The notes under the pieces: generated by a model
What the model was told of the DNA's origin: nothing
Seen by the model: the letters and a program-made list of their open reading frames with translations, nothing else
Database searches by the model: none
Position numbers and translations under genes: made by a program
Source: Candidatus Anstonellales archaeon
GTDB lineage: Archaea; Micrarchaeota; Micrarchaeia; Anstonellales; J096
Direction: 5' to 3'
Assembly (NCBI GenBank): GCA_038890615.1
Contig: JAWAFI010000001.1
Location: 98,611-162,610 of the forward strand
DNA length: 64,000 nucleotides
Part shown: piece after piece, positions 19,190 to 44,464 of the stretch
Layout: the number at the start of each line of letters is the position of its first letter
Position numbering within the stretch: the stretch's first letter is position 1

Positions 19190-20011
19190 CTATATGTGCA
19201 CCCTAAGGAATTTCGCTGCTTCTCTCTTTTTTGCTGGTTCCTCGCTTTCTTTTCCATACGAAGCAACTGCCAACGCCATTCCTACTAATGAGCCACCGAA
19301 CATTACTTTTAATAGGTCGCCTGCTTTGAATGGCTCGGATGAAACAATTGAAGAGAAGAAAAGCGGCATTCCATCCTTTATTGGCTTTATGGCTTCTTTC
19401 TTTATTTCAACAACCTTTCCCGGGAGGGCCTTTTCAGGAGGGAGCAGGGCAGCAGGGGTTTCGCCCTTTGCAAGGCACTCAATAAAGTTGTCTATTGTTA
19501 TGCATTGGCTCTCCCTCCAATTGCCGAAGGCAGTGCGCCTCAACTCATCCATCCTCCCTTTTATGCCCAATGCCTTACCTATGTCCTCGCACAGCACCCT
19601 TATGTAAGTGCCTGCTTCGACATTTGCAATGAAAAGTACCTTTTTTCCCTGAATCTCAACAATATCCAGCGAATAAACCTTCCTCTTCCTGTTCCTTCTA
19701 GCCACTGCGCTTATTTTCGGAGGCATCTGGGTTATCTCGCCTGTGAAAGCCCTGAAGACGCGCTCAATCCGCTCCCTTGGCACTTCTTCAGACAGCTTTA
19801 ATATCCCGACATATTCCTTTGTTTCCCTGTCTAAAAATTGAATAAGCTTCCTTGAGCGCCCTATTGCTATGGGAAGCACGCCGCTCACATTTGGATCAAG
19901 GGTGCCTATGTGGCCACACTTCTTCCCTACAAGCTTTGAAATAAGCGCAGTGGCCTCTGAGCTTGCAATTTTAGGAGGCTTGTCAAGGAGCAGGAAGCCC
20001 TCAAGTTCCAT
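19190..20011 (-). CDS. cbf5: RNA-guided pseudouridine synthase Cbf5/TruB
   Basis: LLDKP, GHIGTLDP, KEYVG, QMPP..SAV, GTYIR, ELRRT; C-terminal PUA-like domain. Confidence 0.92.
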   Translation of the reverse strand: MELEGFLLLDKPPKIASSEATALISKLVGKKCGHIGTLDPNVSGVLPIAIGRSRKLIQFLDRETKEYVGILKLSEEVPRERIERVFRAFTGEITQMPPKISAVARRNRKRKVYSLDIVEIQGKKVLFIANVEAGTYIRVLCEDIGKALGIKGRMDELRRTAFGNWRESQCITIDNFIECLAKGETPAALLPPEKALPGKVVEIKKEAIKPIKDGMPLFFSSIVSSEPFKAGDLLKVMFGGSLVGMALAVASYGKESEEPAKKREAAKFLRVHI

Positions 20012-42445: not shown

Positions 42446-42518
42446 TAGCCCCAACCGGATTCGAACCGGTGTCTGCAGGTCCAGAGCCTGCCATCCTTGT
42501 CCGCTAGACGATGGGGCT
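42446..42518 (-). tRNA. tRNA-Gln(CTG)
   Basis: AGCCCCA/TGGGGCT stem, GCAGG-CT-CTG-GA-CCTGC anticodon arm, GGTTCGAATCC. Confidence 0.95.
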
Positions 42519-42574: not shown

Positions 42575-43000
42575 ATGTCAAGCAATATTCCTGTAAGCGA
42601 GGTAATGAAAAGGAAAACCATTGTAATAGATGTAGAGGAAAGTGTTGAGAAGGCAGCAAAAGTTATGAAGGCAAACGATGTTGGCTCAATAATAGTGACA
42701 GACAGGGGGGCAGTGGGCATAGTGACAGAGAGGGATATATGCTGGAAGGTTGTAGCAGAAGGCCACTCTGCAAAAACAACAAAGGTGAAGCAGATTATGA
42801 GCACGCCGCTGAAGACAATAGAGCCAACAGCAACTTTAGAGCAGGCAGCAGAGAAGATGAAGAAGGAGGGGGTAAAGCGGCTTGTAGTGCTGAACAAGCA
42901 TCAAGAGCTAGTTGGCATTATATCTTACAGTGATATACTCAAAATACTGCCAGCAGTCATAGATATTGTTGAAGAAAGGGCAAGGATAGAAAAGGATTAA
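42575..43000 (+). CDS. CBS-domain pair protein
   Basis: VSEVM, GIVTERDI, VKQIMS, VGIISYSDIL. Confidence 0.92.
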   Translation: MSSNIPVSEVMKRKTIVIDVEESVEKAAKVMKANDVGSIIVTDRGAVGIVTERDICWKVVAEGHSAKTTKVKQIMSTPLKTIEPTATLEQAAEKMKKEGVKRLVVLNKHQELVGIISYSDILKILPAVIDIVEERARIEKD

Positions 43001-43023
43001 AAAGACAAAGCAATAGTTAATAT

Positions 43024-43211
43024 GCTGCGCACGGATGGCGGTATGAGCATAGCTATGATTGGCCCGTCAACAGTGCGCAGTTAAGCAATCACACATAACG
43101 CAGGAGTTGGACATCACGATGGAAGAATCCAACCTTCACAATGGCATCATGCTCATTGAAAGGAAAAGGAGTGGGCTTTCAAGATGCCTGGTTTCGGCAG
43201 CGTTAGTGTGG
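43024..43211 (+). ncRNA. Candidate structured RNA / long 5' leader of dnaG with a pseudoknot
   Basis: Six helices plus a perfect 8-bp loop-bulge pseudoknot; follows GATTAAAAAG (TATA-like) and ends just before the dnaG SD. Confidence 0.6.
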
Positions 43212-43228
43212 ATGAAATAGGTGAGAAT

Positions 43229-44464
43229 ATGGGAAAAACATACATAGATACAGTAAAATATGTAATAACAGTTGAATTCCAGGTTGATGGAGTTATTGAG
43301 AAGCCGGATGTGGTTGGAGCCATATTCGGCCAGACAGAAGGGCTTCTTGGAGATGAGCTAGATTTAAGGGAAATACAGAAGAATGGAAGAATAGGTAGGA
43401 TAGAAGTGAACACAAGGACAGAAGCAGGCAAAACAATAGGGGTAATAGAGATACCCAGCGGCCTTGACATGGTTGAAACAAGCATAATAGGGGCTGCTTT
43501 TGAAACAGTGGAAAGGGTTGGGCCATTCAACGCAAAGTTCAGGGTAAAGAGCATAGAGGATACGAGAGGGGTTAAGAGGAAGTTCGTTGTAGAAAGGGCA
43601 AAGGAGCTGCTAAAGAACTTGATGAGCACAGAGATACCAGAGACAAAGGAGCTGCTTAGCTCAGTAAAGTCAGAGCTAAAGATAGAGGAGATAACGACCT
43701 ATGGGCCTGAGAGACTACCTGCAGGGCCAGGAGTGCAAGGAAGCGACAGCATAATAGTGGTTGAAGGAAGGGCAGATGTGCTTAACCTCCTAAGGAATGG
43801 CATAGACAACGCAATAGCAGTGGGGGGGATAAATGTGCCTGATTCGGTGATTGAACTCACAAAAGGAAAGGAAGTGACACTCTTCTTAGATGGAGACAGG
43901 GGAGGGGACATAATACTAAAGATGATCATTGACAAAGGCGGGGAGATAGATTTTATAGCAAGGGCCCCTGCTGGGAAAGAGGTCGAGGAGCTTACAAGGA
44001 AAGAGATAATAAAGGCGCTAAGGGGAAAGGTGCCTTATGAGGCAACTAGGGAGCAGCAAAGAGAAGGGGATGATGCAAAAGCAAGAAGGGAGAGGCCGTC
44101 CCAGCCATACCAACAATACCATGTTTACCAGCCAAAGAGCAGCAGCCCGCCAATGCCAAATGAAGAGCTTGTTGTGCTAAACATAGACAGGGAAAAGCTC
44201 CTTTCACTGCTTGAAGGAATGGAATCAACGCTCAACGCAAAGTTCTACAACGATAACTACGAAGTTGTTGGGGAGTGCGGGGTAAGGAACCTGATAAAGG
44301 AGCTTGAGACTGCAAAAGGGGTTAGCTATGTAGTTTTCGACGGCATAGTGACCCAGAGGCTTGTTGACATTGCAGAGGAGAAAGGCATAAAGGCTCTTGT
44401 TGCATTCAAGAAAGGCCACATAACAAGAAAGAGCAGGAGCGTAGAGATTGTGGTAACTGAATGA
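43229..44464 (+). CDS. dnaG: Archaeal DnaG (TOPRIM; exosome-associated)
   Basis: KPDVVGAIFGQTEGLLG, ETVERVGP, VVEGRADV, DGDRGG; start reset to MGKTY with SD AGGTGA. Confidence 0.95.
   Translation: MGKTYIDTVKYVITVEFQVDGVIEKPDVVGAIFGQTEGLLGDELDLREIQKNGRIGRIEVNTRTEAGKTIGVIEIPSGLDMVETSIIGAAFETVERVGPFNAKFRVKSIEDTRGVKRKFVVERAKELLKNLMSTEIPETKELLSSVKSELKIEEITTYGPERLPAGPGVQGSDSIIVVEGRADVLNLLRNGIDNAIAVGGINVPDSVIELTKGKEVTLFLDGDRGGDIILKMIIDKGGEIDFIARAPAGKEVEELTRKEIIKALRGKVPYEATREQQREGDDAKARRERPSQPYQQYHVYQPKSSSPPMPNEELVVLNIDREKLLSLLEGMESTLNAKFYNDNYEVVGECGVRNLIKELETAKGVSYVVFDGIVTQRLVDIAEEKGIKALVAFKKGHITRKSRSVEIVVTE

Follow-up and report, generated by a model that had tools for sequence, protein, structure and literature searches.

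The first domain (positions 43024 to 43084, forward strand) of the folded region upstream of dnaG is very probably a single-hairpin box H/ACA-type guide RNA, which, judging from its sequence and those of its relatives, would direct the pseudouridine synthase Cbf5 to U2554 (numbered as in E. coli) within the A-loop of 23S rRNA. Positions are those of the window, the whole 64,000-nucleotide stretch of DNA analysed, which comes from an 846 kb genome (94% complete). The hairpin represents a candidate Micrarchaeota family of H/ACA guides with one precise prediction, a pseudouridine at A-loop U2554. This nucleotide adjoins the CCA terminus of the tRNA in the A site and occupies the position targeted by snR10 in yeast.

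From the outside inwards, domain 1 consists of a lower stem, a GGAUG/CAACA internal loop, an upper stem, GA motifs and an apical stem with a 3-nt bulge, followed by the box. The lower stem joins 43024-43032 to 43073-43081 in 9 bp. The 5' pocket strand GGAUG lies at 43033-43037 (predicted partner 23S CAUCC, 3' of the target UN) and the 3' pocket strand CAACA at 43068-43072 (predicted partner 23S GUUG, 5' of the target U). Between them, the upper stem and predicted K-turn (43038-43067) contain a GA at 43045-46, a C-stem at 43047-53, a bulge at 43054-56 and a second GA at 43057-58. The tandem GA stands 9 nt (5' side) and 11 nt (3' side, GA included) above the pocket, inside the range of 8-11 layers asked of such a motif, and we infer that it would form a K-turn bound by L7Ae. 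The lower stem likewise has the 7-9 bp and the stem-internal loop-stem arrangement of an H/ACA guide, and the distance from the target to the position of ACA in relatives is 5 + 9 = 14 nt, where 14-16 nt is the accepted range. The box position itself (43082-43084), which lies 14 nt from the upper stem's base, reads a degenerate UAA, which is neither ACA nor ANA, so the window copy is filed as an ACA-less variant of an H/ACA guide and not as a strict member. An earlier note had proposed two helices for this domain. The helix of CTGCGCAC with GTGCGCAG holds, with lower-stem pair probabilities of 0.82-1.0 and covariation behind it, while the GAUGG/CCGUC helix is excluded in that register (itself unscored) by a G43038-U43067 pair at 0.99, and GGAUG is instead the 5' strand of the internal loop.

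A pattern search over relatives returned 73 distinct domain-1 sequences, a set later extended to 136. Among the first 73, 622 of the 657 lower-stem cells were paired, where shuffles gave 549 at most; the observed count is inflated by the requirement for at least 7 of 9 pairs. In a 51-sequence alignment, two-sided changes were seen in 8 of the 9 lower-stem pairs and 94.3% of cells were paired. Over 14 pairs (51 of the 65 short members), two-sided changes occurred in 11, with a covariation score of 0.455 as compared to 0.174 for shuffled and at most 0.114 for slid alignments, and the C-stem pairs of the K-turn region covary. The 5' GA is found at constant spacing in 67 of 73 members and the 3' UGA in 52 of 73; members without the fixed 3' UGA have, by eye, mostly shifted it by one base or carry inserted hairpins. 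Long inserted hairpins are tolerated in the apical loop or on the 3' side of the upper stem at L005, L030, L080, L085, L100, L119, L126 and L133. ACA was present at the box position in 71 of 136 members and ANA in 77 of 136. As the search pattern included the pocket, its invariance among the first 73 members is circular, and only model matches count here. The covariance model matched in 79 of 151 genomes of the class and gave 68 matches in 80 dnaG loci, with GGAUG in 68/68 and CAAC in 67/68 (53 of the 68 outside the training set). The stem base adjoining the pocket is more variable (GGATG in 68/68 vs GGATGGC in 65/68). Within the window, model R1 has domain 1 as its single match, at 68.7 bits, this sequence being part of the training set.

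In an effort to identify the target, we scanned 1526 uridines in this genome's 16S, 23S, 39 tRNAs, RNase P and SRP RNA. The pocket forms 9 Watson-Crick pairs (4 + 5) around U2524 of the genome's own large-subunit rRNA, in GGUUG-UU-CAUCC, and this is the single such site; the runner-up reaches 6 pairs, and shuffled pockets attain 9 in 3 of 300 cases. Aligned to E. coli, U2524 falls on the first of the two uridines in the A-loop UU. The E. coli strain used for the alignment numbers that U 2550 (its gene is shorter), and 2554 was assigned via the A-loop landmark in the accessible part of PMC9976906. Pocket registers of +1, +2 and -1 gave only short or G.U-rich sites, and the perfect complement that the 7-mer GGAUGGC has in 23S (GCCAUCC at 1099) was rejected for having no upstream UN and no partner strand. 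An A-loop pattern was matched in 99 of 151 genomes, and by eye 86 of these read GUUG-UN-CAUCC, with A as the unpaired N in 10 of the 86. The A-loops with A at 2555 in place of the near-universal U are those of G062, G042, G066, G044, G060, G054, G050, G006, G117 and G189. With a target flank that hardly varies, no two-sided compensation between guide and target was seen. In three genomes of family f16 the pocket carries the variant CGAC, and pairing is retained via G.U.

A paralogous hairpin in two genomes (L221:260-329 in G056; L220:266-339, minus strand, in G072) has the pocket UUAAUG/UGAAC, both strands of which have moved 4 nt along the same helix 92. Its best site is U2528 of the own large-subunit rRNA, with 12 pairs in G056 and 13 in G072, which places its predicted target at the E. 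coli 2558 equivalent; a model search of the window's genome found no such paralogue. In yeast, a pseudouridine is present at the position equivalent to U2554 (PMC9976906, available portion), and the A-loop pseudouridine at U2923 is made by snR10 (PMC2879522, available portion). The literature surveyed, from which subscription papers and the supplementary target lists of PMC3491384, PMC4652768 and PMC11077068 were absent, contains no report of an H/ACA RNA from Micrarchaeota or of an archaeal guide that targets U2554, nor of a pseudouridine at the equivalent of U2554 in any archaeon.

The only Rfam matches inside the window are three tRNAs. For 42900-43350 the best E is only 2.5 and the gathering threshold of no Rfam 15 family is reached, in agreement with the failure of the earlier note to place the element in a known family. 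That note had gone on to regard it as a new kind of element, whereas domain 1 falls in a known class by architecture. RNase P RNA and SRP RNA were considered as identities and discarded, both being located elsewhere in this genome. The stable fold and the lack of an Rfam match would also be expected of a new class of RNA, either a ribozyme that cleaves itself or a riboswitch for a metabolite. Such an RNA is, in our view, a next to negligible prospect, given that rRNA pairing, K-turn and stems explain all invariant bases of domain 1 and that the structure of domain 2 is not conserved.

The predicted catalytic partner of the guide is a Cbf5-like pseudouridine synthase of 273 aa with a short N-terminus, encoded at 19190 to 20011 on the minus strand. 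The protein matches NF003280 at E 4e-65 and 220 bits, under the cut-off of 242, and has TruB_N, TruB_C_2 and weak PUA domains together with a GTLD motif; a profile search of it found no DKCLD domain. DKCLD is weak or absent through much of this order (0/9 in f16), though TruB_N is present, and loss of ACA and loss of DKCLD follow no clear pattern across genomes by eye. Genes for Nop10 and an L7Ae-family protein were found in the genome. Gar1 (PF04410) was not found in this genome and none scored over cut-off in 76 genomes, with a profile that misses Sulfolobus too (1/4 control archaea). A degenerate ACA in about half of the family, a shortened Cbf5 and an undetected Gar1 would all suit a hairpin that, paired with helix 92 and bound to L7Ae and Cbf5, acts as a folding chaperone of the peptidyl-transferase region and forms no pseudouridine, and a separate role in processing is described for snR10 (PMC2879522, available portion). 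We nonetheless consider a chaperone very unlikely, as the 14-nt geometry, the unpaired UN and the Cbf5 GTLD motif are all retained and the paralogue is likewise centred exactly on a U. With guided modification as the preferred reading, these features point to a pared-down H/ACA machine in which Cbf5 is short, ACA is often lost and Gar1 is undetected.

Co-occurrence of enzyme and guide was examined in a phylum sample that comprised this class only. Cbf5/TruB was found in 0/21 genomes of f15 and 0/13 of f19, and the guide RNA was absent from the same 0/21 and 0/13; in a larger sample the guide was found in 0/46 and 0/25, respectively, and none lay near dnaG in the 5 f15/f19 genomes examined. The data suggest that these two families lost enzyme and guide together, perhaps in one evolutionary event. 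Nop10 matches are weak or missing in f15/f19 (e.g. G148, G154, G184, G178, G210). The five A-loops recovered from f15/f19 have drifted, and position 2554 is C in G184 and G210. Other families speak against the guide reading. Family f14 (G102, G107, G112, G117, G137) has Cbf5 in 8/9 genomes, a weak Nop10 and an A-loop flank changed to UUUG in 7/9; no compensated guide was found in the 1.5 kb that precede dnaG in the 5 of 9 genomes examined. In f10 (0/2) and most of f18, Cbf5 and a matching A-loop are present and the guide model has no match.

The hairpin lies between a CBS-domain gene (42575-43000) and dnaG (43219 to 44464, plus strand, comprising the SD AGGTGA at 43219-24 and a coding sequence from the ATG at 43229). 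The identity of dnaG, as named in the earlier note, was confirmed by NF003108 (481 bits vs a cut-off of 300), and alignments of relatives also begin at the Met of 43229. A tRNA with anticodon CUG is encoded at 42446-42518 on the minus strand, divergent from the run of CBS-domain gene, guide and dnaG. A TATA-like box, TTAAAAAG (42997-43004, plus strand), overlaps the stop of the CBS-domain gene 27 nt before the hairpin and is, from its sequence and spacing, a likely promoter of the guide. TTWAWA occurs within 70 nt upstream of 75 of 134 members of the hairpin family, with 71 matches at 25-34 nt. In the proposed mechanism, transcription would start from this box, probably jointly with dnaG, and the hairpin would be released or used as a guide, its K-turn bound by L7Ae and its lower stem by Cbf5-Nop10. 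Helix 92 would then open and its GUUG and CAUCC would pair with the pocket, leaving UN unpaired, and Cbf5 would turn the U2554 equivalent into pseudouridine. Domain 2 would most likely be the 3' tail of the guide transcript and the leader of dnaG.

Domain 2 (43090-43210, plus strand) is a folded spacer or leader between guide and dnaG for which no homologue was found; its length is matched by no relative among 100 genomes. When the 221-nt region was compared by BLAST with 100 relatives, the best matches covered positions 8-71, and the best in domain 2 was 32 nt long (E 0.0011). The closest DnaG identities are just 46-67%, so domain 2 has no close relatives to be compared with. Folding z-scores were -2.2 for the whole element, -2.7 for domain 1, -2.3 for domain 2 and -3.6 for the minus strand of domain 2. 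A decayed gene was rejected as the origin of domain 2; the best tblastn match (E 0.033) spans 11 residues, and no trace was seen of the genes located here in relatives. The homologue of the small, probably DUF167-like gene that stands between guide and dnaG in relatives lies on another contig here (G000:C2:79253-79462).

The helices that the earlier note had drawn in domain 2 fared unevenly by pair probability, with 0.98-1.0 for the closing helices, about 0.7 for GUUGGA/UCCAAC, 0.54 for GGCAUC/GAUGCC and only 0.05 for UGAAAG/CUUUCA. A tail motif, UUCAC..UCAUGCUCAUU (43136-43157, plus strand; family consensus RCUNAYU), includes the partner of the pseudoknot that the note had proposed. RCTNAYT is found in 69 of 136 tails (17.6 expected) and GCTCATT in 28 of 136 (1.1 expected), and HUCAY repeats average 1.5 per tail vs 0.7, with five in the window, these counts being inflated by related genomes. 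HUCAY words at 43088-43157 and in tails (e.g. L018, L085, L101) are often about 11 nt apart and end in RCUCAUU; in f6 the HUCAY/RCUCAUU region belongs to a multi-stem leader. Antisense pairing of the motif to 23S 2574-82 was rejected, since the motif varies against an almost constant rRNA, and no covariation was evident by eye. Our guess is that the motif, rather than forming a pseudoknot, would probably act in 3'-end formation or in binding a protein.

A different reading of the whole region, close to that of the earlier note, is a 190-nt pseudoknotted leader that controls dnaG through DnaG, L7Ae or a ligand by switching between the K-turn and a helix of AUGAGCAU with AUGCUCAU. The sequence strings on which that note was built are all in place (CTGCGCAC at 43025, GTGCGCAG at 43073, ATGAGCAT at 43043, ATGCTCAT at 43149, CACACATAACGC at 43090, GCGTTAGTGTG at 43200, GATTAAAAAG at 42995 and the SD AGGTGA at 43219), and the 8-nt complementarity is real, a perfect 8-bp match in this genome worth -9.2 kcal/mol. 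A leader role would further be in keeping with the GCUCAU-type motif enriched downstream throughout the family and with the retained dnaG linkage (68 matches in 80 dnaG loci). Across relatives, however, the stems of domain 1 covary and the pseudoknot does not. About 2% of 3000 domain-2 shuffles reach 8 nt, and the window loop finds at least 8 nt with 11 of 118 family tails, its own included, such that the match is not special within the hairpin family. Native loop-tail pairs have a mean longest match of 5.71 nt, as compared to 5.82 nt for cross-paired genomes (P = 0.92; n = 118/136, short loops). Since AUGAGCAU spans the sheared GA on the 5' side of the K-turn as well as its apical stem, K-turn and pseudoknot are mutually exclusive. 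Other genes usually stand between hairpin and dnaG; the gap is 46-621 nt, and in 13 of 18 loci it holds one or two small ORFs (none in this genome). In f6, the GCUC of the motif seems by eye to pair with a downstream GAGC. Thus both a covarying pseudoknot helix and a fixed position before dnaG, the marks of a cis-regulatory leader, are lacking, and five genomes with the hairpin in 23S have a dnaG with no hairpin upstream. We regard such a switch as highly improbable. The helices and the 8-nt match exist in the sequence, yet the analysis does not support 43024-43211 as one pseudoknotted leader. Among the options raised earlier, a co-transcribed non-coding RNA with its own promoter is retained for domain 1 only, and a riboswitch, a ribozyme or a single autoregulatory leader is not.

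The guide family is also found within rRNA genes, where several of the weaker matches of the guide model fell inside 23S. Among 401 genomes, a junction pattern revealed 10, from 8 genera and four families, whose 23S sarcin-ricin loop holds an insertion, a lower bound given that rRNA is often unassembled and the pattern strict. The hairpin-bearing insertions (L361-L370, in G254, G180, G168, G165, G257, G280, G211, G198, G141 and G255) contain the pocket motif in 10/10 cases, nine by model at E up to 0.5 and G141 by pattern. Eight of the ten, 129-167 nt long, have bulge-helix-bulge ends (3-nt bulge, 4-bp helix, 3-nt bulge) in which the central helix forms 4/4 pairs, with GAGT/GCTC in G180 and AAGT/GCTT elsewhere; by eye, the 3' end of G254 is a variant, and that of G255 was not found. 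Taking out the insertion regenerates the sarcin-ricin loop sequence, and the insertions are predicted to be bulge-helix-bulge introns. The inserted hairpin lies about 150 nt downstream of the predicted A-loop target U. In 5/5 insertion genomes checked, the 1.5 kb upstream of dnaG contained no hairpin, which shows that the hairpin has no need of a dnaG-leader role; G211 has both copies, possibly through binning.

Taken together, it is likely that in four Micrarchaeota families the guide moved from the dnaG locus into an intron of the 23S sarcin-ricin loop. The pre-rRNA would there carry and splice out its own pseudouridylation guide, for a modification otherwise known from eukaryotes only, and the intron would be kept as guide host. 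The intron-borne copies suggest a reason for the persistence of an intron in a loop as essential as the sarcin-ricin loop, and provide a natural case in which to ask whether a guide works in cis upon the pre-rRNA that contains it. In the literature covered (which excludes subscription papers), no H/ACA guide in an rRNA intron is reported; group I introns in Micrarchaeota rRNA are known at other positions, according to the available portion of PMC6125680. Many more insertions were observed in the 23S peptidyl-transferase region of Micrarchaeota, some of protein-coding length (L198, L199, L201, L194, L187, L202, L330, L331, L334, L335, L343).

The closest known counterparts of domain 1 are archaeal single-hairpin H/ACA sRNAs of the 10/5/9 fold, namely Pab91 and Pab160/Pf9 of Pyrococcus and sR115 and sR435 of Sulfolobus, as described in the available portions of PMC4652768, PMC2377435 and PMC11077068, the first two of which also define this fold type and the 14-15 nt rule. 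Domain 1 has in common with them, as far as those portions extend, a 9-bp lower stem, a 5-nt 3' guide strand, a K-turn roughly 10 layers above the pocket, a 14-nt spacing to the box and an rRNA target with an unpaired UN. It differs in that this copy has no ACA and no Rfam match and is accompanied by a shortened Cbf5 and an undetected Gar1. U2554 does not appear among the targets in the S. islandicus table. It is presumably absent from the P. abyssi target list as well, on a numbering inferred from E. coli positions. The missing ACA has precedents, since the available text of PMC7075261 describes ACA as dispensable for typical single-hairpin guides, and that of PMC11077068 describes H/ACA-like atypical guides of Pyrobaculum and Sulfolobus that function with no ACA box. 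The atypical guides have no lower stem, whereas domain 1 keeps a full, covarying one. The 3' hairpin of yeast snR10 shares its A-loop target position with that predicted for domain 1. Unlike domain 1, snR10 is a eukaryotic snoRNA of two hairpins, with a separate hairpin for processing; the snR10 family of Rfam has no match to 42900-43350 at E up to 10, and shared ancestry is not claimed.

For the intron-borne copies, the nearest parallels are C/D guides in introns of pre-tRNA-Trp (Haloferax; Pyrococcus sR50) and in the tRNA-Met intron of N. equitans, where the guide sits inside the intron of its own substrate (available portions of PMC7994747 and PMC3491384). N. equitans has one two-hairpin H/ACA RNA besides the C/D-like RNA in its tRNA intron (PMC3491384, same portion). 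The 23S copies of the relatives, not the window copy, likewise place a guide in the predicted intron of its own substrate, but the guide is of H/ACA type and the host is the sarcin-ricin loop. On its own the window copy is modest, and the relocation at the level of the family is the surprising part: if true, the retention of an intron for the sake of its guide would resemble that of eukaryotic intronic snoRNAs.
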